A stretch of 13,786 nt of DNA from an uncultured Eubacteriales bacterium (GCA_964640345.1 CAZXFU010000005.1:17370-31155), one strand, 5' to 3'. Positions 1 through 13,786 are shown, counted from the stretch's first letter. Translations and numbers: made by a program. The notes: generated by a model from the letters alone, not told the origin.

Positions 1-1
1 C

Positions 2-664
2 AAGACAAGCTTTGAGCTTTCTCCAATAGTAAAAACTTGTGTCAATGGTTCATCTGAAATGGTTACAAATCTTTCACTTTCGTTTATAAGTATACTTTTT
101 AATAAGCAACTTATGGAGTTTGTCGGAGCAAATGGCGTTTCGGCTTATGGTGTAATAATGTATGTTGGCTTTTTGTTCGTTGGAACGTATGTTGGATATT
201 CTATTGGAAGTGCACCTGTTATCAGTTACCATTATGGTGCGTGTAATAAAGCAGAACTAAAGGGGCTGTTTAAAAAGAGTTTAAAGTTACTTGGAATGGT
301 GGCAATTGTTATGACGACTCTGGCAGAAATTTTAGCAGAGCCTATGGCTAGTATATTTGTAGGATATGATAAGGAGTTACTTAACCTTACGGTTAATGCT
401 TTAAGGTTATATTCAATTTCTTATGTGCTAAGCTGGTTTAATATATTTGCATCTTCGTTCTTTACGGCGTTAAATGATGGCTTTGTATCTGCACTTATAT
501 CATTTTTACGTACTTTGGTTTTTCAGGCGTTATCAATCTTAGTGTTACCGAGAATACTGGGGATAAACGGCATATGGCTTTCAGTGGTTGTCGCTGAAGT
601 AGTGTCTTTAATGGTTAGTATTGTTTGCTATATAAAGAATGCAAAGAAATATGAATATGTTTAG
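2..664 (+). CDS. MATE-family efflux transporter, C-terminal part (5' end lies outside the window)
   Basis: The frame is open from base 2 (KTSFELSPIVKTCVNGSSE precedes the track's Met at 59) and ends at TAG 662-664. It is a polytopic hydrophobic protein laid out like the C-terminal lobe of Firmicute MATE proteins (GANGVSAYGVIMYV, ISYHYGA, FTALNDGFVSALISFLRTLVFQ, LGINGIWLSVVVAE). The assignment rests on remembered family resemblance. Confidence 0.7.
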   Translation, partial: KTSFELSPIVKTCVNGSSEMVTNLSLSFISILFNKQLMEFVGANGVSAYGVIMYVGFLFVGTYVGYSIGSAPVISYHYGACNKAELKGLFKKSLKLLGMVAIVMTTLAEILAEPMASIFVGYDKELLNLTVNALRLYSISYVLSWFNIFASSFFTALNDGFVSALISFLRTLVFQALSILVLPRILGINGIWLSVVVAEVVSLMVSIVCYIKNAKKYEYV

Positions 665-714
665 CCATCTTACTTAAGCATATCACTATTTTACAAAAAC
701 AATAGATTTATTCT

Positions 715-744
715 TTGACTTGTGGTAGAATAATGATGTATAAG
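715..744 (+). promoter_or_regulatory. Putative sigma-A type promoter for the acyl-CoA-synthetase-like / M50 / dxs gene string
   Basis: TTGACT (715-720), an 18-nt spacer, then TATAAG (739-744). An alternative extended -10, TGgTAGAAT, lies at 723-731. It sits 25 nt upstream of the ATG at 769. Motif match only. Confidence 0.35.
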
Positions 745-768
745 TAGAGGAAAGGATTGGTAATTTTT

Positions 769-2142
769 ATGGAACCAATAATGTCTAAGCCAAGATATGT
801 TGCAAGAGATATGAAAAATTTAAAAGACATGTTGGAGCAAACAGTGGCACTTTACAATGACAAAGAGGCTTTTGTAAAAAAGGCTAAAGATGTATATGTA
901 GGTGTTAATTATAAGAAGTTTAAAGAAGATGTATTTGGCCTCGGAAACGAGCTCATGAAGAGAGGCGTGGTTCACGAGAGAGTTGTGTTATTAAGTGAGA
1001 ATAGATATGAATGGTGTTTAAGTTTTATGGCAACAGTTTGCGGAAACGGAATTGCAGTGCCTCTTTCTACTGATTTGAGCGACAGTGAGATTGTATCAAA
1101 GATAAATTGTGTTAAGGCTAAGTTTATAGTATTTTCTGAGAGGTATAGGTACTTAGTTAAGAGTATAAAACGTAAGTGCCCTACTTTAGAGTGTGTTATT
1201 GATATGGATACTATTATTGAAGACGTTGATAGTCTTTCTTTGCTTAGAATGATAGAGATAGGAAATAAAGACATTCAAAATGGAAATTCTGAGTTTGTAA
1301 AGTATGAGATTGACAGTGAAAGCGGAGCAGGTATTTTCTTTGGGGATACTATTGTTAAAGATAAACCTGTTTTGCTTTCACATAAAAATTTTATTTCGGC
1401 TATTACCGGATTTGTGTCTTTTTTACCGATTGTGTCTGACGACAAAACCGTTGTATTGCAGCCACTTAGTCGTGCATTCGTTTGTATAGATAATTTTTTG
1501 GCTTTAATTTCAAAAGGAGCTACTGTGAATTTTGCTGAAAGCGGAAAGCCTGTAAGCGAATTGCTTATTGACAGTAATCCTTCAATAATTTTTGCTTCAA
1601 AAGAGTTATTTTATGATATTTATAAAGGAATATGGTCAGACCTAGGGAATATGCCGAATATTCGTAAGACAAAGGTTTTGATGGTAATAAGTTTGATTTT
1701 AACAAAGCTTAATATCGATTTGAGGCGTAGGATTTTTAAGGATATATTAAAGAACTTTGGTAAAAACTTAAAGTTGATAGTTATATCTGGGAAGGATTTT
1801 AAAAACAGAATTTTAAGAGATTTTTCAATTTTTGGACTAAATACTGTTGAATGTTACGAGATGATAGAAGCTTCATCTGTGGTTTTTGTTAATGATAAAA
1901 AAGATTTCTTTTGGGATAATATGTTGGGAAAGCCGCTTCCGGGTGTTAAGACGTGCATACTTAATTCTAACGGCAAAGTGCCGGGGGAAATTTCGATATC
2001 TGGAGATAGTGTTATGCTAGGATATTATGACGATAAGAAAGCAACATCAAAGGTTATGAAAAATGACACCCTTTATACCGAGCAAACCGGATATACGGAC
2101 AAAAACGGTGTTTTTTACTTAATAAACAGAAAAAGAAAGTAA
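769..2142 (+). CDS. Acyl-CoA synthetase (ANL/AMP-binding) homologue with decayed catalytic motifs and no C-terminal subdomain
   Basis: I prefer the ATG at 769, which has an AGAGGAAAGGA RBS at 746-756. The track's start at 757 is a TTG overlapping that RBS. The protein is collinear with Firmicute long-chain acyl-CoA ligases (VVLLSENRYEWCLSFMATVCGNGIAVPL, LLSHKNF, PLPGVKTCI, VMLGYYDDKKATSKV). The P-loop position reads FFGDTIVKDKPV (1336-1371) instead of TSGTTGxPKGV. The GYGxTE position reads ECYEMIEAS (1849-1875). The YxTGD position reads YTEQTGY (2074-2094). The ORF stops at INRKRK* (the A8 hinge), TAA 2140-2142. Confidence 0.75.
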   Translation: MEPIMSKPRYVARDMKNLKDMLEQTVALYNDKEAFVKKAKDVYVGVNYKKFKEDVFGLGNELMKRGVVHERVVLLSENRYEWCLSFMATVCGNGIAVPLSTDLSDSEIVSKINCVKAKFIVFSERYRYLVKSIKRKCPTLECVIDMDTIIEDVDSLSLLRMIEIGNKDIQNGNSEFVKYEIDSESGAGIFFGDTIVKDKPVLLSHKNFISAITGFVSFLPIVSDDKTVVLQPLSRAFVCIDNFLALISKGATVNFAESGKPVSELLIDSNPSIIFASKELFYDIYKGIWSDLGNMPNIRKTKVLMVISLILTKLNIDLRRRIFKDILKNFGKNLKLIVISGKDFKNRILRDFSIFGLNTVECYEMIEASSVVFVNDKKDFFWDNMLGKPLPGVKTCILNSNGKVPGEISISGDSVMLGYYDDKKATSKVMKNDTLYTEQTGYTDKNGVFYLINRKRK

Positions 2143-2154
2143 GGAGTGATGTTA

Positions 2155-2796
2155 ATGTCATTTATAATAGAAAAGATAATTTATGTAGTACCGGCGGTAC
2201 TTATAGCATTGTCATTACATGAGTTTGCACATGGGTGGGCTTCATATATGCTAGGTGATCCTACTCCTAAATCTCAGGGAAGGTTATCTATTAATCCTTT
2301 TCAGCATCTTGATTTAGTCGGAACGCTCTTATTGTTTTTCTTTGGATTTGGTTGGGCAAAACCTGTTATGGTTGATTCGAGGTATTATGAGAATCCAAAG
2401 AGTGATATGGTAAAAGTGGCACTTGCAGGACCTGTTATGAATTTTGTAGTTGCTTTTATTTCTTTGTTTATTATTGGGATATTAGAAAAAGTTGGGGTAT
2501 CGATAAATAGTTTAAGTATTTATGTTATCAATCTTTTAAATTGTATTGCACTGATAGACATAGGACTTGGGGTTTTTAATCTCATTCCTGTTCCGCCACT
2601 TGACGGTTCAAAGGTTTTACTTGCAATTCTGCCCGCGAAGTCATATTTTTCATATATGAGATATGAACAGTTTGGAATGATTGTTTTGATGTTATTTGTG
2701 TGTTTGGGAGCATTTGATGGATTTTTGATTGGCACAAGGAATAATATTGTTAATGGAATGATAAATATTATTTCAAAGATTTTACAACTAGCATAA
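2155..2796 (+). CDS. Site-2 protease family (peptidase M50) integral-membrane zinc metalloprotease
   Basis: The HExxH zinc motif appears as LHEFAHG, and the second signature as NLIPVPPLDGSKV. There are several hydrophobic helices. The ATG at 2155 lies 8 nt after the GGAG of AAGGAG (2141-2146), which overlaps the upstream stop codon, so the two genes are translationally coupled. The track's starts at 2146 and 2149 are too close to the RBS. Confidence 0.85.
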   Translation: MSFIIEKIIYVVPAVLIALSLHEFAHGWASYMLGDPTPKSQGRLSINPFQHLDLVGTLLLFFFGFGWAKPVMVDSRYYENPKSDMVKVALAGPVMNFVVAFISLFIIGILEKVGVSINSLSIYVINLLNCIALIDIGLGVFNLIPVPPLDGSKVLLAILPAKSYFSYMRYEQFGMIVLMLFVCLGAFDGFLIGTRNNIVNGMINIISKILQLA

Positions 2797-2845
2797 TGTA
2801 AAATAAATTTAGTGAAGAATATATATAGTTTAGTGGTGGTAGAGT

Positions 2846-4714
2846 ATGTACAAATTGTTGGATAGTATACAGAAACCGAGCGATATAAAAAGGTTTAACA
2901 ATATGGAATTAGAGGCTTTGGCTCAAGAGTTGCGTGACTTTATGCTAGAGAACATTTCAAAAACCGGTGGGCATGTTGCGTCAAATTTCGGAATTGTTGA
3001 GCTTACTTTGGCATTGTTTAAGATTTTTGATTTTGATAATGACAAGATTATTTTTGATGTTGGGCACCAGAGTTATCCATATAAAATTCTTACCGGAAGG
3101 AAAGATGATTTTCCTACTTTGAGGCAGTATAACGGTATTAGCGGATTTCCTAAGCGTGAAGAAAGTAAGTATGATTTTTTTGATACGGGGCATAGTAGTA
3201 ATTCGATTTCTGTTGGACTTGGAATGGCGAAAGCAAGAGATATCCAAATAAGGGATTACAATGTGATTTCTGTTATCGGAGACGGTGCTTTAACCGGCGG
3301 TATGGCATATGAGGGGTTAGATGCTCTTGGTTTTAGCAAGACAAAAATGATTATTATACTAAATGATAATCAAATGTCGATTTCACCTAACGTTGGAGGA
3401 TTGTCTGAGTATCTTAACATGGTTAGGATCAATAAAAGATACAATGAATTAAAAAAGAGTGTTCAAAATAGGTTGGATGAAAAAAATGTTATTTTGAAAT
3501 TGTTAAAGAAGATAAAAAACAGTATAAAGACGCTATTTGTTCCGTCTATGTTTTTTGACGATTTGGGTATTAGATATATTGGACCGATAGACGGTCATAA
3601 TATTTCAGAGATGTCTGAGATTTTCGAAAAAGCAAAAGAGCTTGATGAACCTGTTGTTATACATGTTGTGACTAAGAAGGGTAAAGGCTACAAGTTTGCG
3701 GAAGAGAATCCTAATAAGTTTCATGGGATTTCCCCTTTTAATCCTGAGAACGGAGAAGTTTTAAGAGAAAGTGACAAAGTTACATATTCTAAGGCGTTCG
3801 GAAATGCAATGGTAGATATTGCCAAGAATAACAAAAATGTTGTGGCTATAACTGCAGCCATGACGGAAGGAACAGGATTAAGCAGTTTCTCAAAGCTATA
3901 TCCTAATAGATTTTTTGATGTTGGAATTGCTGAACAGCATGCAGTTTCTTTTGCGGCAGGTCTTGCTACAGAAGGTCTTCAGCCTGTTTTTGCGGTTTAT
4001 TCTACATTCTTGCAAAGGGGTTTTGACCAAGTTATGCAAGATGTTTGTATGCAAAATTTGCCTGTTGTTTTTATGCTAGATAGAGCAGGACTTGTTGGAA
4101 ATGATGGAGAGACACATCAAGGTGTTTTTGATATTTCTTATCTTTCTATGATACCTAATTTGACTATTTTAGCTCCAAAGTGTGCGGACGAAATGGAAAT
4201 ACTTTTAAAGTATGCTCTTTCATTAAAGAAACCTGTTGCTATAAGGTATCCAAGGGGGGGAGATGATAGTTCCCTTGGGTTAAAGCCAATTGTTAGAGTT
4301 GAACAGGGGAAATGGGAGATCTTATCTAAGGGAGAGAGGGTTGCTTTAATTGCAACCGGTAAAATGGTTGGTAAGGCTATGGCATCAAAGAAAATATTAG
4401 AAGAAATCGGCATAAATCCTATGATTATAAATGCTACTTTTATAAAACCGCTTGATGTTGCTTTAATAAAGCGTTTAATTAGGGAGAAATATAATATTAT
4501 AACTTTGGAAGATAATGTTGCTATTGGCGGTTTTGGAAGTTTAGTTTTAAAAGTGCTTTCTAATGCAAGATATAAAGGAAGTTTCAGAATGATGGCTTTT
4601 AAGGATAGGTTTATTTCACAGGGGAGTGTGGAAGAGCTTATGAAACAGGAAAAAATGAGTGTGGAAGAAATTGTTAAAATTACTAAAAAACTTTATAATT
4701 CTAAGAAAGCTTAG
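2846..4714 (+). CDS. dxs: 1-deoxy-D-xylulose-5-phosphate synthase
   Basis: The 622-aa protein has the DXS-typical N-terminus (LLDSIQKPSDIKRFNNMELEALAQELRDF) and GHQSYPYKILTGR. It carries the thiamine-diphosphate motif GDGALTGGMAYEGL...NDN, plus the transketolase-like pyrimidine-binding block (FDVGIAEQHAV) and C-terminal domain. Confidence 0.95.
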   Translation: MYKLLDSIQKPSDIKRFNNMELEALAQELRDFMLENISKTGGHVASNFGIVELTLALFKIFDFDNDKIIFDVGHQSYPYKILTGRKDDFPTLRQYNGISGFPKREESKYDFFDTGHSSNSISVGLGMAKARDIQIRDYNVISVIGDGALTGGMAYEGLDALGFSKTKMIIILNDNQMSISPNVGGLSEYLNMVRINKRYNELKKSVQNRLDEKNVILKLLKKIKNSIKTLFVPSMFFDDLGIRYIGPIDGHNISEMSEIFEKAKELDEPVVIHVVTKKGKGYKFAEENPNKFHGISPFNPENGEVLRESDKVTYSKAFGNAMVDIAKNNKNVVAITAAMTEGTGLSSFSKLYPNRFFDVGIAEQHAVSFAAGLATEGLQPVFAVYSTFLQRGFDQVMQDVCMQNLPVVFMLDRAGLVGNDGETHQGVFDISYLSMIPNLTILAPKCADEMEILLKYALSLKKPVAIRYPRGGDDSSLGLKPIVRVEQGKWEILSKGERVALIATGKMVGKAMASKKILEEIGINPMIINATFIKPLDVALIKRLIREKYNIITLEDNVAIGGFGSLVLKVLSNARYKGSFRMMAFKDRFISQGSVEELMKQEKMSVEEIVKITKKLYNSKKA

Positions 4715-4739
4715 ATGGTTCTAGTGCAATGTTTTTGCT

Positions 4740-5882
4740 TTATTTTAACGCCGGACGAGTCGGATCTATTACTTTTTCTGCATCAAAGTAATTTTCTGTT
4801 AAATACTCTTTTCTCTTGAATAAGTTGTATCCGTCTAGGTTAAAGCGTGTCATTATTACGTTGTCTCCGTCATGTAGTGATAATTCCGGTGTTTTTTGGA
4901 CAGGACAGAAGATGTTAAACCCTTTATTTACTATATATCTGTATCTTTCGTCATCAGTTTTGAACCTAAATCCGAATGGGGAGATATAGATGTTTGTTTT
5001 TCCTGTTACTGGCTCAATATATTTTATCCAGCGTTCTGTGTCGTGCTTTAGCTGTTCCATTGTTACTGTGTAGTTTTTGAAGTATTGGTTATGTGTGTAA
5101 CTGTGGCATGCAAATCTCCAACCTGTTTCTTTTAGTTTGTTTGCTACTTCTGTTGCATCACTTATTGCTTTTTCAAGCTCTTTGCCGGTTAGGTCTGTTA
5201 TTCTATATCCTAATGCTCCTTGATATCCGGTTAATGCTAATATTCCTTTTGCACCATGGAATGAGAATTCGGGATGTTCTTTTACAAAGTCGTCTAATAT
5301 TGGCATTACGTCGGCTTCTCTTGAGATTATTGTCTCGCCGTTTGGAGTTACTATCTCGTTTGCAACTTCTCCATTTTTGTCTAATACGAGTTTTGTCGCA
5401 AATCCATCGGGTTTCATATAGTCATAGTAATTTACATCATCTATGGATAATACTAACGGTTTTCTTCCTTCAGGAAGATAGATGTCTTTTTTCTTTATCT
5501 TTGTAGGGTCTGCTGGGTCTTGCTCAATTAATTCTTCTATATCATATAACATGTATCCGCGGTCTAGTAATTCTGGTAACATTTTTTTGAATTCTGAGAC
5601 CGTTGTCATCCAATAGTTATAGCCGTTTGCTCGACTGTCGTTATCAAATGCTAAGTCGGTGTAAGCGATTAGGCTGTGAAAGAATACATGATGCACAGGT
5701 CCTTCATATTTTACCAGAATTTCGGGTTCTTCTTTTTCTTCCTGAGTGCTATCTGAAGTTTGAATGTTTGAATTTGGATTTTCACTTGCGAATGCACTTT
5801 CTTTTGATTTTTTTATGTACGTGATTAGTCCGACACATAATATAACTACTAAAGTTATTATAATCATTGCCCTTTTTTTCAT
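4740..5882 (-). CDS. Membrane-anchored polysaccharide deacetylase (NodB/CE4-like) family protein
   Basis: The start is taken at MKKRAMIIITLVVILCVGL (ATG 5882-5880), which has GGAGG at 5894-5890 and a 7-nt spacer. The track's longer start at 5924 has no RBS. There is an N-terminal signal/anchor helix, a DD-type motif (LVLSIDDVNYYD) and a His motif (ACHSYTHNQ) typical of CE4 deacetylases. The gene is convergent with dxs, with a 25-bp gap and no obvious hairpin. Confidence 0.75.
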   Translation of the reverse strand: MKKRAMIIITLVVILCVGLITYIKKSKESAFASENPNSNIQTSDSTQEEKEEPEILVKYEGPVHHVFFHSLIAYTDLAFDNDSRANGYNYWMTTVSEFKKMLPELLDRGYMLYDIEELIEQDPADPTKIKKKDIYLPEGRKPLVLSIDDVNYYDYMKPDGFATKLVLDKNGEVANEIVTPNGETIISREADVMPILDDFVKEHPEFSFHGAKGILALTGYQGALGYRITDLTGKELEKAISDATEVANKLKETGWRFACHSYTHNQYFKNYTVTMEQLKHDTERWIKYIEPVTGKTNIYISPFGFRFKTDDERYRYIVNKGFNIFCPVQKTPELSLHDGDNVIMTRFNLDGYNLFKRKEYLTENYFDAEKVIDPTRPALK

Positions 5883-6033
5883 TTTTATACCTCCATACTT
5901 AGATTTTTGCACAAAAATTGACAAATTTCAACAGGATTTTTTTGTTAATTGAAAAAGATTTTTAAATTGCTTGTACTTTGTGGTAAATTTTATATATACT
6001 TATATGCAGAGAGTTTTTGAACAGGGGGATAAG
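5883..6033. promoter_or_regulatory. Divergent intergenic region that should hold the promoters for the deacetylase gene (-) and mltG (+)
   Basis: This is a 151-bp AT-rich gap between two divergent starts. A + strand candidate is TTGCTT (5967-5972), N18, TATATA (5991-5996). A consensus TTGACA at 5918-5923 lacks a well-spaced -10. A - strand candidate is TTGAAA-N17-AAAAAT. None is compelling on its own. Confidence 0.3.
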
Positions 6034-7032
6034 ATGAATAGGAGAATTGTGGTTGTTTTGATTTTAGGTGTTGTTTTTTTTACCATATTTTTTGGTATAG
6101 TTACTGTTAAAAATATAGACACAGAAATGTTAAATAGCGAGAAGATTATTGTTATAAAGCCAAGTAGTGGTGCCAAGGCTATTGCAGGTGTTTTAAAAAA
6201 TAGCGGTGTTATAAAGAGCAAGTTTTTCTTTATAAATTACATTAAGAGGCAGGATGTTGCCACAAAATTAAAACCCGGTACTTATAAGTTTGGACCAGGT
6301 AAGGTTACATTTGATGATATATTAAATAAGTTACTTGAAGGCGAACAGGAAGAATATATAACGGTTACTATTCCGGAGGGGTATACTGTGGCTCAAATTG
6401 CAAAATTATTTGCAGATAAAGGGATTGTTACAGAGGAGAATTTTTTGAAGTATGCTTCAAGTTTAGATATTCCGTATGATTATATTCCAAAAGGCAGTGA
6501 TTATAGGCAACTTGAGGGATATTTATTCCCAGATACATATCAAATACCTGTTTCGTGGAATGAAGAGAAGATAGTTGATTTACTACTTTCTGAATTTGAT
6601 GCCCATTGGTCTGATGAATATGATAAGAGAGCTAAGGAACTTGGTTTTTCTGTTAATGAGATTGTGACTATTGCTTCGCTTATTGAACGTGAAGCTAAGG
6701 TTGACAAAGAGAGACCACTTATTTCTAGTGTTATTCACAACAGACTAAGAAAGGGGATGCTACTTCAAATTGATGCTACCGTTCAGTATTTGTTACCTGA
6801 GCAAAAGGGGAGACTCTTGTATAAGGATTTAGAGGTTGATTCTCCATATAATACTTATAAATATGAGGGTCTTCCGCCAACAGCAATTGCAGCACCGGGA
6901 ATATCATGTATAGAAGCAGCATTATATCCGGACGATACTGAGTATTATTATTATAGGGCAAAGGCTAGCGGAAATGGAGAACATTATTTTTCAAAGACGT
7001 TTGAGGAACATGTAAGTTATGCTGGCAAGTAG
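6034..7032 (+). CDS. mltG: Endolytic murein transglycosylase MltG (YceG-like family)
   Basis: I prefer the ATG at 6034 (MNRRIVVVLILGV, a TM anchor), which has AGGGGGA at 6023-6029. The track's start at 5971 has no RBS. YceG signatures are present: LASLIEREAKV (catalytic Glu region), QIDATVQY, and SPYNTYKYEGLPPTAIAAPG. Stop TAG at 7030-7032. Confidence 0.9.
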   Translation: MNRRIVVVLILGVVFFTIFFGIVTVKNIDTEMLNSEKIIVIKPSSGAKAIAGVLKNSGVIKSKFFFINYIKRQDVATKLKPGTYKFGPGKVTFDDILNKLLEGEQEEYITVTIPEGYTVAQIAKLFADKGIVTEENFLKYASSLDIPYDYIPKGSDYRQLEGYLFPDTYQIPVSWNEEKIVDLLLSEFDAHWSDEYDKRAKELGFSVNEIVTIASLIEREAKVDKERPLISSVIHNRLRKGMLLQIDATVQYLLPEQKGRLLYKDLEVDSPYNTYKYEGLPPTAIAAPGISCIEAALYPDDTEYYYYRAKASGNGEHYFSKTFEEHVSYAGK

Positions 7033-7095
7033 GTAAAATGGGGTTACTGAAAAAATAGTTAAAATTTATGTAGATTTTTGTCGAAATGATATATG

Positions 7096-7124
7096 TTGAA
7101 AAAAGATGAAAAATATAGTAAAAT
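7096..7124 (+). promoter_or_regulatory. Putative sigma-A promoter of the NRPS gene
   Basis: TTGAAA (7096-7101), a 17-nt spacer, then TAAAAT (7119-7124). It lies about 30 nt upstream of the ATG at 7157, and the RBS GGGAGGG is at 7144-7150. Motif match only. Confidence 0.45.
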
Positions 7125-7156
7125 ATTAATGGCAATAGTTTTTGGGAGGGATTACT

Positions 7157-8446
7157 ATGAAGAATCTATATGGTTTAACTTATTCGCAGAAAAATATATT
7201 GAATATAAGTAATTTGTATCCTAATTCGGCAATAAATTGTATTTCTGGTACTTTTAAGATTGTTGGAAGCGGTAACGCAGAAGCATTAAAAAGAGCCATA
7301 AATTTATATGTAAAAGATAACGACGGATTAAGGATAAGGATTACTAAAGATTCCGGCGAGTTTTTGCAATACATAGAAGATTATAGTGAAATTACTCTTG
7401 AAGAAATTGAATTTGATAATGAGAGAGAGCTTTATATATGGGAAGAGATAGAGAGTAAAACGACTATTCCTACGTTAGATAATGCTCTTTTTTATTTCAA
7501 AATTATAAAGATAAAGAATGGTGATATTGGTTATTTTGTAAAATGTAATCATATAATAAGTGACGCTTGGACTTTTGTTGTGCTTGTTAATGGAATTATG
7601 GAGTATTATAAGGAGATTGTTAGCGACAATAAAGTTATTGAGATTATAAAGCCGTCAATTGTTGAGCATATTGAGGCTGAAGAAGCTTATTTTAAGTCAG
7701 AAAGGTTTAAAAAAGATAAGAAGTATTGGGAAGATAATTTAGATGATATAAATCTAAAGACGATTTTGAAGAAGAGGAACAAGAACTCTATTGAAGCAAA
7801 GCGAACAAGTGTTGTTCTTCCTTCTAGGCTTAATGAGAAGATATATGAATACTGTAAGGAGAATAAGACTTCGCCGTTTAATTTGTTTGTTTCTGCTTTG
7901 GCTATGTATGTAAAGAGAGCGACTAATAAGGAAGATGTTATTATTGGTACTACGACTTTAAACAGAACTAATGCTAAGGAAAAAGAAATGTGTGGTATGT
8001 TTGTTAATACGTGTCCTATAAGAATTAAAATTAAGGATACGATGAATTTTAATGAGGTTGTAAAGTCACTAAATATTTCTTCTATGTCACTTCTTCGTCA
8101 TCAAAAATATCCTTATGAGCTTCTGACTGAAGATTTAAGAGAAAAGTATGATTTTAAAGATAATTTGTTCGATATAGTATTAAATTATCAGAATGCTAAG
8201 TTTGAGAGCAGTGACGAGACAGGCATTAATTATACTACTCGTTGGCATTTTAGCGGTTCTCAGGTTGAGTCATTAATAATAAATATAAATGATAGAGAAG
8301 ATTCAGGACAGCTTATTGTAAGTTATGATTACTTAAAGGATTGCTTTAATTTTAAGGAAATTGAGTACTTACATAAGCATATGATCGGTCTACTTTGGCA
8401 TGCTCTTGATAATGATGCTAAGAATATTGCGAATATTGAAATGTTA
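7157..8446 (+). other. NRPS condensation domain C1 (aa 1-430), atypical active site
   Basis: Core motifs occur in order: TYSQKNIL (C1), GLRIRI (C2), CNHIISDAWT (C3, 7544-7573; the consensus is HHxxxDG), CGMFVNTCPIR (C5, 7991-8023), HQKYPYE (C6, 8099-8119). The catalytic second His and the Asp are retained. The first His is Asn and the Gly is Ala. Confidence 0.85.
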
Positions 8447-11400
8447 CCGGAAGAGGAACAGGATAGGATTTTAACGAGGTTTAATAATGTTGAACTTAGT
8501 GATGAGTCAGCAGATATTCAGGTTGAAAAACGTAAAAACAGAAATGTTAAGGCGTATATTTTGGATTCAAACAGAGTGGCTTTACCTATAGGTATACCTG
8601 GAGATTTATATGTTAGCAGGAAGATAAGTGGTGACGAGATTGAAAATCCTTATGAACCAGGCAAAAAGTTATATAAGCTCGGGGTTATTGCAAGATGGTA
8701 TCCTAAGGGAGATATTGAGATATTAAATAGCGATGACGAGAGGCTTCTTGTACCTAAGTTTAATATGAAACGTCCTGTAAAGACTATTAATACTGTTTGG
8801 ACAGGAAGTTTTGTTACAGAACCTGTTAAACCTTATGTTAAGAGATTTGCCAGAGTTTTTAACTATAGAATAAAAATGGATTTTGCGGATTACAATCAAG
8901 TACTTCAAGAGTTAGTGGATAAAAGTAGTAAGATAAATACAAACAAAGACGGAATAAATGTAATTTTGTTAAGGCTTGAAGATTATATTAGAGATAATTC
9001 GGGTAGTGCTAGTGAGAAGATAGCTATAGTCGAGGAAACTACAAAAAGGCTTATTGATTTACTTGCTAAGGTTGAGAGTACTACGTTGTTTGGCATATTT
9101 AAGAAATCTAACAGAATTAGCGACGAAAGAATTCTTAATTCTATAGAAGAGAATAGTGAGAAAATACTTTCTGGTATTAAGTCCAATAAGAATATTTTTG
9201 AGTTAGATATTAAAAATATAGTGGCTGATTACTGTATAGAGAATAAATTTGATGATGAAAATGATAAAATTGCTCATATCCCTTATACTAAGGAGTTTTA
9301 TGCGGGGCTTTCGGCTGAAATTTGCAGAAAGATAGTTGCACTTACAAGAAAACCATACAAGGTTATTGTACTTGATTGCGATAATACTTTGTGGGGTGGT
9401 GTTTGTGGTGAAGTTGGTACGCATGGCATCGAAATTTCAGAAGGGTTTAAGTCGTTACAGAGATTTGTGCTTAATAAACAAAAAGAAGGTTTTTTACTTG
9501 CAATTGCAAGTAAAAACAATTTTGAAGATGTTCTTGATGTTTTTGATAATAATGATGATATGCTATTAAAGAGAGAGGACATTGTAAATTGGAAAGTAAA
9601 TTGGGATAATAAGGCTGATAATGTAAAGAAAATGGCGAAAGAACTTAATTTGGGCATAGATAGTTTTATTTTCTTAGATGACAATCCTATGGAATGTATG
9701 AATATGATGACCGCTATTCCTGAGGTGCTTACGTTGAATGTGCCATCTAAAGAGGCCATTCCTATGTTTTTAAGGCATTTATGGGCTACGGATAATTTGA
9801 TTGTTACTGCCGAGGACAGGGAAAGAAGTAAGAGATATATAGAAGAGCAAAAGAGAAAAGATGCTGAAAAAAGCGTTAATTCTCTTGGAGAGTTTATTAA
9901 GGAGTTAAATATAAAGGTTAGCATGAGGGAAATTGCCGAGTGTGAAGTGCCGCGTGCTTCACAAATGACACTTCGTACAAATCAGTTTAATCTTAGTACG
10001 ATAAGAAGAACTGAAAAGGATTTGGAGGAGCTTATAGGGGATGACTCGTATAAAGTTTTTGTAATTGAGGCAAATGACAAGTTTGGAGAGTATGGAATAA
10101 TCGGACTTGTAATTTTGAAAGTTGAAGATGTTATAAAGGTTGATACTTTCTTATTAAGTTGTAGAATTCTTGGCAGGAATATTGAAAACATTATATTAGA
10201 CGGGATCAAAATTTTTGCTGATGGTATTGGCAAGGAAAAGGCTGTGTTTGAGTACATAAAGTCTGAGAAAAATAAGCCTATACTAAATTTTTTAGACAAG
10301 ACACCATTTTTTTGTTCGAAGAAGGGAACAGATTCAGCTGTTTATGAACTGACTATGAAAGATGTCCCTCAGATTGAAGATGTGGAATTATTATATAATA
10401 GGGCTTTTGAAAAAAGGGCAGTATGCGAAGAAAAAATAGAAGTAAGTGCACCTGTTATAAAAGAGAGTGATACAAGTTCTAATAACGGCGAGCTTATTTT
10501 GGTTAACAACAAGCTTATAAAAAGTGCTACTAATAAGGAATATCTGGTTGTTTTAAGAGAATATACAGGTCAGAAGATTATTGACTCAATAGAGAATAAG
10601 ATTATAAAAGGTGAATACAGAAAGCCGACTACAGATACGGAAGTAAGACTTTGTCAGATTTGGTGTGATGCCTTAAAATTAAAGCAAGTCGGTATATCAA
10701 ATGATTTCTTTGAAATCGGTGGAGATTCGCTTTCCGCTGTTTTTGTGTTATCTCAAATATTAAAAGAATTTAAGGTTACACTTGGCCTTACAGATTTGTT
10801 CACTGCTAAAACTATAAGAGAGATTGCTGAACTTATTGACAAGAAAAAAGTTGAGGAATATCTCCCTATTCCGAATGTACCAAAAAGCGAGTACTATGAA
10901 TTGTCTTCTGCACAGTCAAGAATGTTCTTAATAAATCAGATTGAAGGCGGAAGTGCTAAATATAATGAAACTCAGATGCTAAGGGTAAAGGGAAATTTAG
11001 ATAAAGATAGGCTTGAAAATGCGTTTAAAGAGATAATAAAGAGGCATGAAATTTTAAGAACAGGATTTTTCATGGTAGATAATAAACCTGTTCAAAAAGT
11101 CTTTGATAGTGTGCCTTTTAAAATTAAATATTTAGATGCGGACGAAAGCGAATTAGATGAGATAAAGAACGAGTTTGTGAAGGCATTCAACTTGGGTAAT
11201 CCGCCTCTACTTAGAGTGCTTTTGGTTAGGATTAATGACCATGAACATATGATGTTTTTTGATATACACCATATTGTTATAGATGGCACGTCGTTTGGTA
11301 TTTTTATAAATGAAGTTTTAAGTTTATATGAAGGAAGAAAGCTTTGTGAGATTAAGAAGCAATATAAGGATTTTGCTGCTTGGCAGAATAATGAGGCTAA

Positions 11401-13786
11401 ATCCGAAACAATAAAAAAACAAGAAGATTTTTGGATGAAGCAGTTTGAAGATGAAATTCCTGTATTGAATCTTCCGACAGACTTTGCAAGACCGCTTGTT
11501 CCAAGTGGCAAAGGAAATAAAGTTTATTTTACAATCGATAAAAAGACTACAAAAAGTATAAAAAATATATGTCAAGAAACAGAAACGACGATGTTTATGT
11601 TTTTATTTGCAGTTTATAATGTTTTATTGCACAGATATTCTAATCAAGAAGATATTGTGGTTGGAATTCCTGTTGCGGGCAGAAATCATCCGGATACTGA
11701 AAATATGCTAGGTATGTTTATAAACACTCTTCCAATAAGAACTGCTCCAAAGGGAAACATGACTTTCGTTGAGTATTTACTGCAAGTAAAAGATGTGATT
11801 ATAAAGTGCTTAGAAAATCAAGAATTCCAATACGAGAAGATTGTTAATGTGTTAAATGTTACAAGAGATATGAGCAGAAATCCTTTGTTTGACGTTATGT
11901 TTTCGCTTCAAAACATGGACATTCCAAAGACAAAGACCAGTGATTTGGAATTTGAACAACTTGAGTTTTCAAATGGTACTTCAAAGCAAGATTTAAGTAT
12001 GTTTATTAGAGAAGTTGATGATAAACTGGAAATTGAGACTGAATTTAGTACGGATTTGTATAAGGCTGAGTCAATTAATCGTTTCAATGAGCATTATTCT
12101 AATTGCATTAAAGCAATTTTAAGCAAGCTTGACGCGAAGTTAGGCGAGTTTGATTTCTTAACTCGTGATGAAAAGAGTGTAATTAAGGCATTTAACAGTA
12201 CTTCATATGTATATAATGAAAGCTTAACGGTAAAAACACTTTTTGAAGAGCAGGTTAAAAAGACGCCAAATAATATTGCAATAGTTTTTGGCGGCGAAGA
12301 AATATCATATTTAGATTTAAACAAAAGGGCTAATAGGGTTGCAACAATATTACGTGAAAACGGTATAGGACCTAATAAATCTGTTGGTGTTATGCTTGAC
12401 AGATCGATAGAATTAATCGTTGCTTTGCTGGGTGTTGTTAAAGCGGGTGGATTTTATGTGCCGATAGATCCTGAGTATCCTCAAGAGAGAATTGAGTACA
12501 TATTAAATAACAGTAAGACAAATGTATTACTTACGCAAGAAAGATTAAAAGATAAGGTTGAATTTTCGGGTAATAAGTTATTGATGAGTAAGGAATTAGG
12601 TGTTGAAGATAAAAATCCTGAGTCGATAAACGATAAAGATGATTTGATTTATACAATTTATACGTCAGGTTCAACAGGAAATCCTAAAGGAGTAATGCTT
12701 ACTATAAAAAATATTGTTAACTTTATTTTTGGAGTGAAGAACAGAATTAAATTTACACAAGAAGAAGTTATACTTGGTATTACAACTGCATCCTTCGACA
12801 TTTTCGTACTTGAGACTTGGTTGCCGTTATGCTCCGGATTAAAGATTGCACTTACTTCTGCTTCAGAGCAGTTAAATGTAAGAAAAATAATAGAGGTTAT
12901 AAAGAATAATAGAGTTACAACGGTGCAAATGACCCCTTCAAGATTAAAACCTGTTTTGCAGTTTGGAAGCACGGATGATTTCGCTAATTTACAAAATGTA
13001 TTAGTAGGTGGGGAACCGCTTACTCCTGAAGTTTTGAAGTTGGCTCAGGAAAAGACAAGTGCGAAGATATACAATATGTATGGCCCTACTGAAACTGCGG
13101 TTTGGTCTTCAATAGCAGATATGACAGACACAGAAGAAATTACGATTGGTGAGCCTATTGCAAACACGACTTTCTACGTTTTGAATGATCAAGGAGCAAT
13201 TCAGCCATTTAATGTAGAAGGGGAATTGTGCATTGGCGGTAGCGGACTTTCCGCAGGTTATAAGGACAGAGAAGATTTAACGAAAGATAAGTTTATCGAT
13301 AATGCTTTGGTGGGAGAGAAGATTTATAAAACCGGAGATAAAGTGAAATTAACCGATGAAATAAAACTAAGATTTATTGGAAGAATTGATAACCAGATTA
13401 AGTTTAGAGGTTATAGAATTGAAGTCCAGGATATTGAAAGCAACATTACTAAATATAACGGAATAGATAAATGCGTGGTTGTGCTGAATAATAAAGGCGA
13501 TCAACTATGTGCATATTATGTGTCTGATTTTGAGATAGACGATAAGCTTATAAAGGAGTATTTGTTTAATAAATTACCAAATTATATGATACCCACATAT
13601 TTTGAAAGGTTAGAGGAATTTCCGTTTACTCCAAATGGCAAAATTGATAGGAAAAAATTGAAAGAGAAGGCTGACAATACTGAATTCGCTAATGAAAATT
13701 CTGAGATTGACGGTGAAATTCAAGAAAAACTTTGTAAATGTTTCCAAAAGGCTTTGGATATTCCAACAATAAATAAGAATGAGAAT
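7157..13786 (+). CDS. Nonribosomal peptide synthetase, N-terminal 2,210 aa (3' end outside the window); C - A relic - FkbH-like - T - C - A(Gly) - T...
   Basis: This ORF is not in the supplied track. The ATG at 7157 follows GGGAGGG with a 6-nt spacer. Manual translation of every codon from 7157 to 13786 found no stop, and 6,630 nt is exactly 2,210 codons. It contains two sets of condensation core motifs, one full adenylation motif set A1-A10, GGDSL carrier motifs and HAD-IIIC/FkbH motifs (see the domain entries). Confidence 0.95.
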   Translation, partial: MKNLYGLTYSQKNILNISNLYPNSAINCISGTFKIVGSGNAEALKRAINLYVKDNDGLRIRITKDSGEFLQYIEDYSEITLEEIEFDNERELYIWEEIESKTTIPTLDNALFYFKIIKIKNGDIGYFVKCNHIISDAWTFVVLVNGIMEYYKEIVSDNKVIEIIKPSIVEHIEAEEAYFKSERFKKDKKYWEDNLDDINLKTILKKRNKNSIEAKRTSVVLPSRLNEKIYEYCKENKTSPFNLFVSALAMYVKRATNKEDVIIGTTTLNRTNAKEKEMCGMFVNTCPIRIKIKDTMNFNEVVKSLNISSMSLLRHQKYPYELLTEDLREKYDFKDNLFDIVLNYQNAKFESSDETGINYTTRWHFSGSQVESLIININDREDSGQLIVSYDYLKDCFNFKEIEYLHKHMIGLLWHALDNDAKNIANIEMLPEEEQDRILTRFNNVELSDESADIQVEKRKNRNVKAYILDSNRVALPIGIPGDLYVSRKISGDEIENPYEPGKKLYKLGVIARWYPKGDIEILNSDDERLLVPKFNMKRPVKTINTVWTGSFVTEPVKPYVKRFARVFNYRIKMDFADYNQVLQELVDKSSKINTNKDGINVILLRLEDYIRDNSGSASEKIAIVEETTKRLIDLLAKVESTTLFGIFKKSNRISDERILNSIEENSEKILSGIKSNKNIFELDIKNIVADYCIENKFDDENDKIAHIPYTKEFYAGLSAEICRKIVALTRKPYKVIVLDCDNTLWGGVCGEVGTHGIEISEGFKSLQRFVLNKQKEGFLLAIASKNNFEDVLDVFDNNDDMLLKREDIVNWKVNWDNKADNVKKMAKELNLGIDSFIFLDDNPMECMNMMTAIPEVLTLNVPSKEAIPMFLRHLWATDNLIVTAEDRERSKRYIEEQKRKDAEKSVNSLGEFIKELNIKVSMREIAECEVPRASQMTLRTNQFNLSTIRRTEKDLEELIGDDSYKVFVIEANDKFGEYGIIGLVILKVEDVIKVDTFLLSCRILGRNIENIILDGIKIFADGIGKEKAVFEYIKSEKNKPILNFLDKTPFFCSKKGTDSAVYELTMKDVPQIEDVELLYNRAFEKRAVCEEKIEVSAPVIKESDTSSNNGELILVNNKLIKSATNKEYLVVLREYTGQKIIDSIENKIIKGEYRKPTTDTEVRLCQIWCDALKLKQVGISNDFFEIGGDSLSAVFVLSQILKEFKVTLGLTDLFTAKTIREIAELIDKKKVEEYLPIPNVPKSEYYELSSAQSRMFLINQIEGGSAKYNETQMLRVKGNLDKDRLENAFKEIIKRHEILRTGFFMVDNKPVQKVFDSVPFKIKYLDADESELDEIKNEFVKAFNLGNPPLLRVLLVRINDHEHMMFFDIHHIVIDGTSFGIFINEVLSLYEGRKLCEIKKQYKDFAAWQNNEAKSETIKKQEDFWMKQFEDEIPVLNLPTDFARPLVPSGKGNKVYFTIDKKTTKSIKNICQETETTMFMFLFAVYNVLLHRYSNQEDIVVGIPVAGRNHPDTENMLGMFINTLPIRTAPKGNMTFVEYLLQVKDVIIKCLENQEFQYEKIVNVLNVTRDMSRNPLFDVMFSLQNMDIPKTKTSDLEFEQLEFSNGTSKQDLSMFIREVDDKLEIETEFSTDLYKAESINRFNEHYSNCIKAILSKLDAKLGEFDFLTRDEKSVIKAFNSTSYVYNESLTVKTLFEEQVKKTPNNIAIVFGGEEISYLDLNKRANRVATILRENGIGPNKSVGVMLDRSIELIVALLGVVKAGGFYVPIDPEYPQERIEYILNNSKTNVLLTQERLKDKVEFSGNKLLMSKELGVEDKNPESINDKDDLIYTIYTSGSTGNPKGVMLTIKNIVNFIFGVKNRIKFTQEEVILGITTASFDIFVLETWLPLCSGLKIALTSASEQLNVRKIIEVIKNNRVTTVQMTPSRLKPVLQFGSTDDFANLQNVLVGGEPLTPEVLKLAQEKTSAKIYNMYGPTETAVWSSIADMTDTEEITIGEPIANTTFYVLNDQGAIQPFNVEGELCIGGSGLSAGYKDREDLTKDKFIDNALVGEKIYKTGDKVKLTDEIKLRFIGRIDNQIKFRGYRIEVQDIESNITKYNGIDKCVVVLNNKGDQLCAYYVSDFEIDDKLIKEYLFNKLPNYMIPTYFERLEEFPFTPNGKIDRKKLKEKADNTEFANENSEIDGEIQEKLCKCFQKALDIPTINKNEN
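8444..8740 (+). other. Vestigial adenylation-domain relic (aa 430-528)
   Basis: LPEEEQDRILTRFNN (8444-8488) is a typical C-A junction and A-domain leader. About 20 aa later comes AYILDSNRVALPIGIPGDLYV..., then KLYKLGVIARWYPKGDIEILNSDDE (8546-8740). This mirrors the xYVLD...P.G..GELxIGG / YxTGD / DG.IEflGR.D region (A6-A8). The roughly 330 aa carrying A1-A5 are absent, and GG, TGD and GRxD are mutated. Confidence 0.65.
8777..10369 (+). other. FkbH-like domain (HAD superfamily subfamily IIIC), aa 541-1071; predicted glyceryl (1,3-bisphosphoglycerate-derived) loading unit
   Basis: The HAD motifs are intact: motif I, VLDCDNTLWGGV (DCDNT at 9374-9388); motif II, LLAIASKNN; motif III Lys in NWDNKADNVKKMAKEL; motif IV, FIFLDDNPME (DD at 9677-9682). 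The N-terminal extension typical of FkbH-like proteins is present (WTGSFVTEPVKPYVK...ILLRLEDY). So is the C-terminal acyltransferase-like block, FGEYGIIGLV...FLLSCRILGRNIE (Cys at 10160-10162). Confidence 0.8.
10628..10849 (+). other. Thiolation / carrier domain T1 (aa 1158-1231)
   Basis: TDTEVRLCQIWCDALKLKQVGISNDFFEIGGDSLSAV, with the phosphopantetheine-attachment Ser at 10727-10729. The following helices LSQILKEFKVTLGLTDLF...IREIAELI fit the PCP/ACP fold pattern. Confidence 0.85.
10889..12151 (+). other. NRPS condensation domain C2 (aa 1245-1665), canonical
   Basis: YELSSAQSRMFLI (C1), RHEILRTGF (C2), DIHHIVIDGTS (C3; HHIVIDG at 11267-11287), YKDFAAWQ (C4), LGMFINTLPIR (C5), NQEFQYE (C6), RDMSRNPLFD (C7). 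Confidence 0.9.
12152..13660 (+). other. NRPS adenylation domain A2 (aa 1666-2168), predicted glycine-activating
   Basis: All core motifs are intact: ISYLDLNKRAN, VKAGGFYVPID, YTSGSTGNPKG (12659-12691), SFDIF, NMYGPTE, GELCIGGSGLSAGY, YKTGD, GRIDNQIKFRGYRIE, LPNYMIP, PNGKIDRKKL. Ten specificity residues were read by gap-free alignment to GrsA-PheA numbering and give D-I-L-Q-L-G-M-V-W-K. Confidence 0.9.
13703..13786 (+). other. Start of carrier domain T2 (truncated by the window edge)
   Basis: EIDGEIQEKLCKCFQKALDIPTINKNEN matches the first helix of a PCP (x-E-x-L-x-x-I/F-x-x-x-L...) just upstream of where FFxxGG(H/D)SL would be expected. The Ser motif itself lies beyond the window. Confidence 0.5.

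Follow-up and report, generated by a model that had tools for sequence, protein, structure and literature searches.

A two-module peptide synthetase with an FkbH-type glyceryl loader and an adjoining sensor kinase in an uncultured Eubacteriales bacterium: a probable acyl-glyceroyl-glycine synthetase and possible source of the kinase's ligand

We analysed a 13,786-nucleotide stretch of DNA from an uncultured Eubacteriales bacterium (GCA_964640345.1, CAZXFU010000005.1:17370-31155), hereafter the window, which ends in a large gene for a nonribosomal peptide synthetase (NRPS). An earlier note, made from the sequence alone, had described a frame starting at 7157 that is free of stops for 2,210 codons, and translation agrees: the plus-strand frame 7157-13786 reaches the window's last base without a stop, a length whose probability by chance is about 10^-85 at the window's base composition. 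The same open reading frame (ORF) is present in two independent ENA assemblies. The ORF track lists only antisense ORFs across this region, as the note had said, because the tool omits ORFs that run off the source. The note's description of the surroundings was also borne out, as the genes upstream are housekeeping genes encoding DXS and MltG and the genome is AT-rich, with a G+C content of 33%. A promoter-like site, which is a consensus match only, lies in the 124-nt gap that follows mltG and leaves a leader of only ~32 nt before the NRPS start (Table 1). An Rfam search of the window returned no match, so no riboswitch or RNA element was found upstream of the NRPS, and the repeats inside the ORF amount to a single 35-nt pair, which is at chance level.

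The frame runs off the window, as the note had observed; it is cut about 20 residues into the second carrier (T) domain, before the GGDSL serine of that domain. The remainder of the gene was read from L082, a 14,811-bp contig from a separate ENA assembly that was reached through the DXS and MltG proteins of the window and that differs from window positions 1746-13786 by 2 mismatches in 12,041 nt (99.98% identity, same species). In L082 the NRPS stop lies 834 nt past the window end and the full protein comprises 2,487 aa; what lies beyond the window is confined to the remainder of T2 (FFALGGDSL) and a thioesterase (TE) domain (GFSAG, GNHF). The stop falls 1 nt before the ATG of a 587-aa histidine kinase (HK) with HisKA_7TM, PAS, HisKA and HATPase_c domains, and the HK stop overlaps the ATG of a response regulator (RR); as read from L082, the NRPS is the first gene of a three-gene operon, NRPS-HK-RR. 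Because only the rest of T2 and the TE precede the HK, we regard it as close to certain, for domain architecture and gene end alike, that the NRPS is a complete bimodular enzyme outside any larger cluster, with 89% of it inside the window.

That the frame opens a giant multi-module NRPS in a larger cluster, with further modules, a release domain, a phosphopantetheinyl transferase (PPTase), MbtH and transporters downstream, would suit an ORF that leaves the window and a class of genes that are often very large, but this retains almost no probability given the gene end and the HK and RR that follow it in L082, and given that the orthologues of L004 and L005 (both from uncultured Eubacteriales/Clostridia) have 2,518 and 2,500 aa and the same neighbours. 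The note was thus right that the gene is truncated by the window edge, but the larger cluster it expected is not there: no further module, MbtH, PPTase or transporter follows, and the term megasynthetase does not suit two modules and 2,487 aa.

The complete domain order, from the window and L082 together, is C1(starter-like)-Arem-FkbH-T1-C2-A(Gly)-T2-TE, where C denotes condensation, A adenylation and Arem an A-domain remnant. Pfam and NCBIfam bear out the identification as an NRPS, recovering two condensation domains (PF00668, two stretches corresponding to C1 and C2, 645 bits), AMP-binding (288 bits), AMP-binding_C and one PP-binding domain. The note's list of two C, one A and one T domain plus the start of a second T was recovered, but it passed over aa ~446-1160, which hold the A remnant and an FkbH-type glyceryl loader; these ~700 aa between the first C and the first T are the most distinctive part of the NRPS.

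The loader comprises an N-terminal subdomain, a HAD phosphatase core with the motifs DCDNT (9374-9388), SKNN (9509-9520) and LDDNP (9674-9688), and a C-terminal subdomain with an invariant Cys in LLSCRILGR (10151-10177). By analogy with OzmB, this Cys is the putative glyceryl acceptor. All four motifs are invariant or nearly so across 13 family members, and aa 550-886 match the solved FkbH-like protein PDB 3SLR. Downstream, T1 carries GGDSL at 10718-10732, with Ser1191 as the predicted phosphopantetheine attachment site, and the second-module A domain retains the core motifs TSGSTGNPKG, NMYGPTE, YKTGD, GRIDNQIKFRGYRIE and PNGKIDRK, the last of which includes the A10 lysine.

Table 1. Features of the NRPS locus and of the related loci compared with it. 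Coordinates refer to the window unless a contig is named.
Feature	Position	Strand	Evidence and remarks
Sigma-70-like promoter, TTGAAA-17 nt-TAAAAT	7096..7124	+	10/12 consensus matches; shuffled sequence has a mean of 3.1 such sites
Ribosome-binding site, GGGAGGG	7144..7150	+	read from sequence, 6 nt before ATG at 7157
NRPS gene, codons 1-2210 of 2487	7157..13786	+	Pfam/NCBIfam; full length from L082 5412-12875; cut by window end
C1, N-terminal starter-like condensation domain (aa 1-445)	7157..8491	+	Pfam; motif NHIISDAW at 7547-7570
A-domain remnant (aa 463-540), A6-A8 stretch of A core	8543..8776	+	aligns to TycB 788-867 and McyB
FkbH-type glyceryl loader	8777..10381	+	TIGR01686 at aa 735-1049, 284.2 bits vs cutoff 146.65
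T1 carrier (aa 1164-1227)	10646..10837	+	PF00550, 54.6 bits
C2, canonical condensation domain	10889..12178	+	Pfam; HHIVIDG at 11267-11287
A domain, code DILQLGMVWK (glycine type)	12242..13642	+	PF00501, 288 bits; TIGR01733, 391 bits vs cutoff 317
T2, first ~20 residues	13724..13786	+	rest of T2 and TE beyond the window, in L082
HK	L082 12877-14640	same as NRPS	PF16927, 113 bits; outside the window
RR of the window clade	L082 14640-14810 (start); L004 17552-18574; L005 17291-18313		REC plus tail
HK pair compared	L115 17417-19228 vs L122 11054-12865		variable patch aa 113-166, just after conserved WTNxxHHLFY

We found no close relative of the NRPS in the protein database, where the best full-coverage matches are C-Arem-FkbH-T-R proteins (R, reductase) of 42-45% identity and where C1 alone matches more than 100 clusters of ~1,450-aa C-A-T-R proteins. 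A scan of species-representative genomes recovered the order C-Arem-FkbH-T-C-A-T-TE in L004 (73% identity), L005 (66%), L007, L009, L011 and L015. In the same scan the serine code DVWHFSL[VI]DK was present in 11 of 11 C1-A-T-R loci; Gly- and Thr-coded C1-A-T-R relatives were also found in a wider survey.

In the module-1 A domains of C1-A-T-R enzymes, mostly Ser-coded, it is residues ~325-412 that the A remnant matches, at 35-47% identity (E down to 1e-17), and the remnants of other family members reach 55% identity to such domains, with E of 1e-23. Derivation from the NRPS's own A domain was considered and rejected, as the remnant matches the module-2 A domain with E = 1.5 (E = 0.045, marginal, in another BLASTP comparison of the two), unlike its clear match to the relatives. 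Because the remnant is closest to the A domains of Ser-coded C1-A-T-R relatives, the FkbH subfamily descends from C-A(Ser)-T-R enzymes, FkbH having replaced most of the serine A domain. Glycerate is serine with a hydroxyl in place of the amine, so that the swap would turn an amide into an ester. At 81% and 69% identity to its counterparts in L004 and L005, the remnant exceeds the linkers in conservation and equals or exceeds the catalytic domains, which suggests that it was kept for a structural role.

FkbH domains within NRPSs stand in for an A domain and load glycerate from 1,3-bisphosphoglycerate, and in vioprolide and corramycin biosynthesis the C domain before FkbH esterifies the glycerate with a fatty acid (PMC8949500; PMC10099666; PMC12397197). 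As in vioprolide VioA and corramycin ComK, with the order FAAL-ACP-C-FkbH-T (FAAL, fatty acyl-AMP ligase; ACP, acyl carrier protein), a C domain directly precedes FkbH-T in the window NRPS and FkbH occupies the place of the A domain. The comparison is one of domain order and not of C-domain sequence, and it has clear limits: C1 stands at the N-terminus with no fused FAAL-ACP, and the enzyme has two modules, releases through a TE, keeps an A remnant before FkbH and is tied to a sensor kinase. The loader itself resembles free-standing or polyketide-synthase-embedded glyceryl-ACP loaders such as FkbH, OzmB and Tmn16 in scoring above the TIGR01686 cutoff, in its HAD DxDxT/SKNN/DD motifs, in the invariant Cys in SCR and in the carrier that follows. 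Unlike these proteins, which feed methoxymalonyl or tetronate polyketides, its glyceryl unit would be condensed with glycine.

The window NRPS resembles the C-A(Ser)-T-R and C-A-T-C-A-T-R NRPSs of anaerobic Bacillota in its C1 type (31-47% identity), in the HisKA_7TM kinase and regulator downstream and in its A remnant, which derives from their first A domain, but it differs from them in having FkbH for that A domain and hence an ester for the amide. Release by a TE, not reductive release, further implies that an acid is to be expected here and not an aldehyde. By architecture and source, the C-A-T-C-A-T-R genes of human-gut loci may belong to the human-gut dipeptide-aldehyde NRPS family (Guo 2017; ruminopeptin, Schneider & Balskus 2018, as cited in PMC12327764).

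The pairing of NRPS and kinase was surveyed by domain content across 75 genome loci and 55 metagenome loci. In 53 of the 53 C1-type NRPS loci with at least 2.5 kb of sequence downstream, which come from several phyla, an HK lies within 400 nt downstream on the same strand; a REC protein comes after the kinase in the C1-type cassettes, 37 of which are non-redundant with full annotation. Such a kinase is absent from all 52 of the other FkbH-NRPS loci, where FkbH is part of a large NRPS. The window NRPS therefore belongs to a widespread and apparently unstudied set of small C1-type NRPSs that are always followed by a sensor kinase. No published description of the NRPS-kinase cassette was found in the literature searched, although the kinase may have been mentioned before in the primary papers on gut NRPSs. 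Independent gene calls agree on the cassette in Dehalobacter sp. TBBPA1 and in another contig. The Dehalobacter locus (L079, from a cultured strain; CP162385.1 2775219-2793529) encodes a C-A(Gly code)-T-R protein that has an Sfp-type PPTase gene immediately before it and the genes for an HK and a REC-DUF3369-HD-GYP protein after it.

The cassette NRPSs comprise Ser-R, Gly-R, Thr-R, Ser-Thr, glycerate-R and glycerate-(Gly/Ser/Asn/Pro)-TE types, and the cassette also occurs with C-A-T-C-A-T-R genes from human-gut metagenomes. The regulator is usually REC-DUF3369-HD-GYP in Bacillota, an arrangement described as an 'RpfY' type of cyclic di-GMP (c-di-GMP) phosphodiesterase regulator (10.1101/2021.11.05.467447), and is REC-HATPase in Ignavibacteriales and Deltaproteobacteria.

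Seven cassette NRPSs (L070, L093, L094, L096, L099, L103 and L109) have the order C-A(Ser)-T-C-A(Thr)-T and reach the kinase gene without a recognisable release domain, and L083 carries two C-Arem-FkbH cassettes in tandem. Two cassettes, L008 and L010, occur in the same Deltaproteobacteria MAG225, of the glycerate-R and glycerate-Gly-R types, and their sensors differ correspondingly. Large NRPSs with two to three in-line C-FkbH-T modules were found in L017 (Clostridium zeae), L018 (Paenibacillus methanolicus), L022, L027, L029, L031 and L032; peptides with several glycerate (depsi) units are implied, and none of these seven has a sensor kinase. The RR of the window clade ends in a tail that is faintly similar to the kinase's own C-terminal region.

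The predicted chemistry rests on the second-module code and on homology. The code, read by anchoring on the FDxxxxE, NxYGPTE and PxGKxDR motifs, is identical in L004, L005 and L011 and departs from the classical glycine code of the Stachelhaus table, DILQLGLIWK, at just two positions, where M replaces L and V replaces I. As further support for glycine we considered LgrA, the best solved-structure match, whose module 2 activates Gly, and set it aside, as the score sums two A domains and the pocket residues of LgrA-A2 differ. In the proposed sequence of steps, FkbH would take D-1,3-bisphosphoglycerate, strip a phosphate and load the glyceryl unit on T1; C1 would attach a fatty acyl group, donated by acyl-CoA or acyl-ACP, in ester linkage to a glycerate hydroxyl; the A domain would load glycine on T2; C2 would make the amide bond; and the TE would free (O-acyl)glyceroyl-glycine as the acid or as a small lactone. 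The 2-hydroxyl is the likely acylation target, because it occupies the place of the serine amine in the parent family. No FAAL, ACP or acyl-activating enzyme was found in the cassette, nor an ACP anywhere in the window or in the cassettes of relatives, so the donor would be acyl-CoA or acyl-ACP from primary metabolism. Taken together, the NRPS probably links a fatty-acylated glycerate to glycine; we consider the glycerate-glycine core of the product likely, and acylation of the glycerate by C1 somewhat better than an even call.

The predicted product is amphiphilic, and it could be a structural envelope lipid, an acyl-glyceroyl-glycine aminolipid, with the kinase monitoring the state of the membrane or envelope. 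The Bacillota gene indeed lies in a conserved core region beside mltG, with murA-like and ftsQ nearby, in three species whose proteins share 66-73% identity. NRPS turnover is, however, generally too slow for bulk lipid synthesis, the diversity of second residues (Gly, Ser, Asn, Pro) fits a signal better than a bulk lipid, and linkage to mltG is limited to the Bacillota FkbH-type loci whereas linkage to the HK is universal; a role as envelope lipid is therefore quite improbable. The same limited linkage led us to reject mltG as a part of the NRPS system.

The acylation step depends on C1, which stands at the extreme N-terminus with no carrier domain upstream. C1 retains the second His and the Asp of the HHxxxDG motif but has N in the window, and S in the closest orthologues, L004 and L005, at the place of the first His. 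If this replacement had left C1 catalytically dead in the window clade, the product would be unacylated glyceroyl-glycine, and the lack of an acyl-activating enzyme or ACP in the cassette would fit. The catalytic His of this motif is, however, the second one, and the 73% and 65% identity of C1 to its orthologues in L004 and L005 is similar to that of active domains, although 445 aa without a function should have decayed. We accordingly hold a dead C1 to be improbable, if less so than an envelope lipid. The identity of C1 to the C1 domains of cassette relatives is 42-47%.

The position of C1 is that of the lipoinitiation starter C domains of surfactin SrfAA, rhizomide RzmA and CDA, which are likewise N-terminal with no upstream carrier, and the starter structures 7C1H (67 bits) and 8F7F (62 bits) are among its best matches, aligned over nearly the whole domain. 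Both matches are weak, as is that to the elongation domain 2JGP (74 bits), than which the starter structures score no better, and unlike in lipoinitiation the acceptor would be a hydroxyl and not an amine. An obvious candidate for acyl activation, a 461-aa AMP-binding protein encoded upstream, was rejected, as its synteny extends to the closest relatives only and other cassettes do not have it.

Whether the kinase may sense an acyl-glyceroyl-glycine product was addressed by comparing sensors with predicted products. Across the 37 non-redundant cassettes, sensor identity was described by 0.25 + 0.21 x kinase-core identity + 0.23 x (same predicted product class), and a product-class coefficient of 0.23 was reached by 0 of 2,000 label permutations. 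Individual pairs behave in the same manner. L008 (Deltaproteobacteria) and L012 (Clostridia), both of the glycerate-R type, have sensors that are 82% identical on kinase cores that are 49% identical. L006 and L010, which differ by the second NRPS module, share only 47% of their sensor residues, as against 80% of the core and 81% of the REC domain. All bimodular-glycerate sensors, including that of L010, share a loop insertion that glycerate-R sensors do not have.

The most informative pair comprises two human-gut-type cassettes, L115 and L122, whose DNA is 98-100% identical from C2 through the RR outside one patch of the sensor. Their C1-A1 segments have been replaced, one carrying a Val-type and the other a Thr-type code, and 4 kb away, HK aa 113-166 hold 22 of the 24 substitutions and 18 synonymous changes. 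We propose this ~55-aa patch as a candidate ligand-specificity region. As C1-A1 and the patch are not adjacent and were exchanged together, physical linkage alone does not explain their co-variation. Given this co-variation of sensor domain and predicted NRPS product, the product is most likely the ligand of the adjacent kinase, a claim to which, taken by itself, we give about even odds. A self-made, lipid-like signal would then be read by the HK and, in most relatives, passed to an HD-GYP regulator acting as a c-di-GMP phosphodiesterase.

The product might instead be an ordinary specialised metabolite, such as an antibiotic, surfactant or protease inhibitor directed at other organisms or the host, which the two-component system only regulates or accompanies. 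Regulators inside biosynthetic clusters are common, distant C-A-T-C-A-T-R relatives occur in human-gut metagenomes, and such gut NRPSs are reported to make protease-inhibiting dipeptide aldehydes (PMC12327764). However, the cassette regulators are of HD-GYP or HATPase type and not DNA-binding, and so cannot directly switch the NRPS gene on; the cassette has no resistance or export genes; the HK linkage holds in every one of the 53 loci across phyla; and the sensor domain shifts with the product even where the flanking DNA is identical. This makes an ordinary specialised metabolite unlikely, though it is the strongest of the alternatives considered.

Collectively, we favour the reading in which the NRPS makes acyl-glyceroyl-glycine, arose by replacement of a serine loader with FkbH and supplies the ligand of the adjacent kinase, and assign to it as a whole a probability of roughly 0.6. 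Several observations weigh against it. The glycine call depends on a 10-residue code compared with the Stachelhaus table; the first His of the C1 motif is lost throughout the window clade; C1 matches solved starter domains about as weakly as solved elongation domains, with ~60-74 bits for either; and the cassettes lack an enzyme for acyl activation. The co-variation of sensor and product is confounded by shared ancestry, by mosaic recombination and by the NRPS 3' end abutting the sensor-coding DNA, and L115 and L137 have the same codes with only 60% sensor identity. Finally, HD-GYP is missing from the 340-aa RR of the window clade, for whose 220-aa tail Pfam gives no match at E <= 1.

A broader proposal, which we put forward tentatively and at somewhat less than even odds, is that these cassettes form an unrecognised multi-phylum class of self- or cell-cell signalling systems, in which a small NRPS makes a lipid-like signal, a 7TM HK reads it and an HD-GYP protein is usually the output, and in which specificity groups would come about through paired replacement of the NRPS specificity domains and the ~55-residue sensor patch. 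The signal makers would be NRPSs for predicted acyl-Ser, acyl-Gly or acyl-Thr aldehydes or alcohols, dipeptide aldehydes and acyl-glycerates. Precedents in which a synthase gene adjoins a multi-pass membrane HK are CqsA/CqsS, RpfF/RpfC/RpfG (with HD-GYP output), Dickeya Vfm, which has an NRPS-type signal, and agr. Vfm offers a parallel for synthase specificity and receptor segment diversifying together: A-domain polymorphism in vfmO/P defines signal groups (PMC9306890), though there the polymorphism is tied to a permease and not to the kinase. The cassette synthases and sensors are not homologous to those of CqsA/CqsS, Rpf, Vfm or agr, and the signal proposed here is a predicted one.

The locus thus offers a complete and tractable 7.5-kb gene with a simple predicted product, and not a fragment of a huge cluster. 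It presents a case of NRPS evolution in which a serine A domain was hollowed out for FkbH, leaving a conserved remnant in an otherwise unchanged scaffold, and the amide-to-ester swap by FkbH may serve as a natural template for module engineering. The coupling of this NRPS family, without exception, to a 7TM sensor kinase that co-varies with it suggests that anaerobes, human-gut Clostridia among them, use a new family of signals made by NRPSs. The ligand-receptor hypothesis is directly testable: ligands are predicted, a candidate specificity patch is mapped, and the cultured carrier Dehalobacter sp. TBBPA1 is a possible experimental system. If the cross-phylum signalling proposal were true, bacterial signalling would be the primary role of the human-gut dipeptide aldehydes, which have been described as inhibitors of host proteases.

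Other genes in the window show features of their own. The AMP-binding protein mentioned above (461 aa), 5 kb upstream of the NRPS, matches Pfam AMP-binding only, with no detectable C-terminal subdomain, and is followed after 4 nt by a gene for a 216-aa M50-type membrane metalloprotease with a weak 'daptide HExxH' match; the pair (757-2796) is kept in L004 and is not part of the NRPS cassette elsewhere. The sole minus-strand gene (4740-5924) lies between dxs and mltG; its 394-aa product matches polysaccharide deacetylases only weakly and NCBIfam not at all, and is kept in L004 and absent in L005. Nearly all genes are on the plus strand, along the whole of which (1-13786) GC skew is about +0.3; this strongly positive skew and the gene orientation would fit a position on the leading strand of a Bacillota-type genome.

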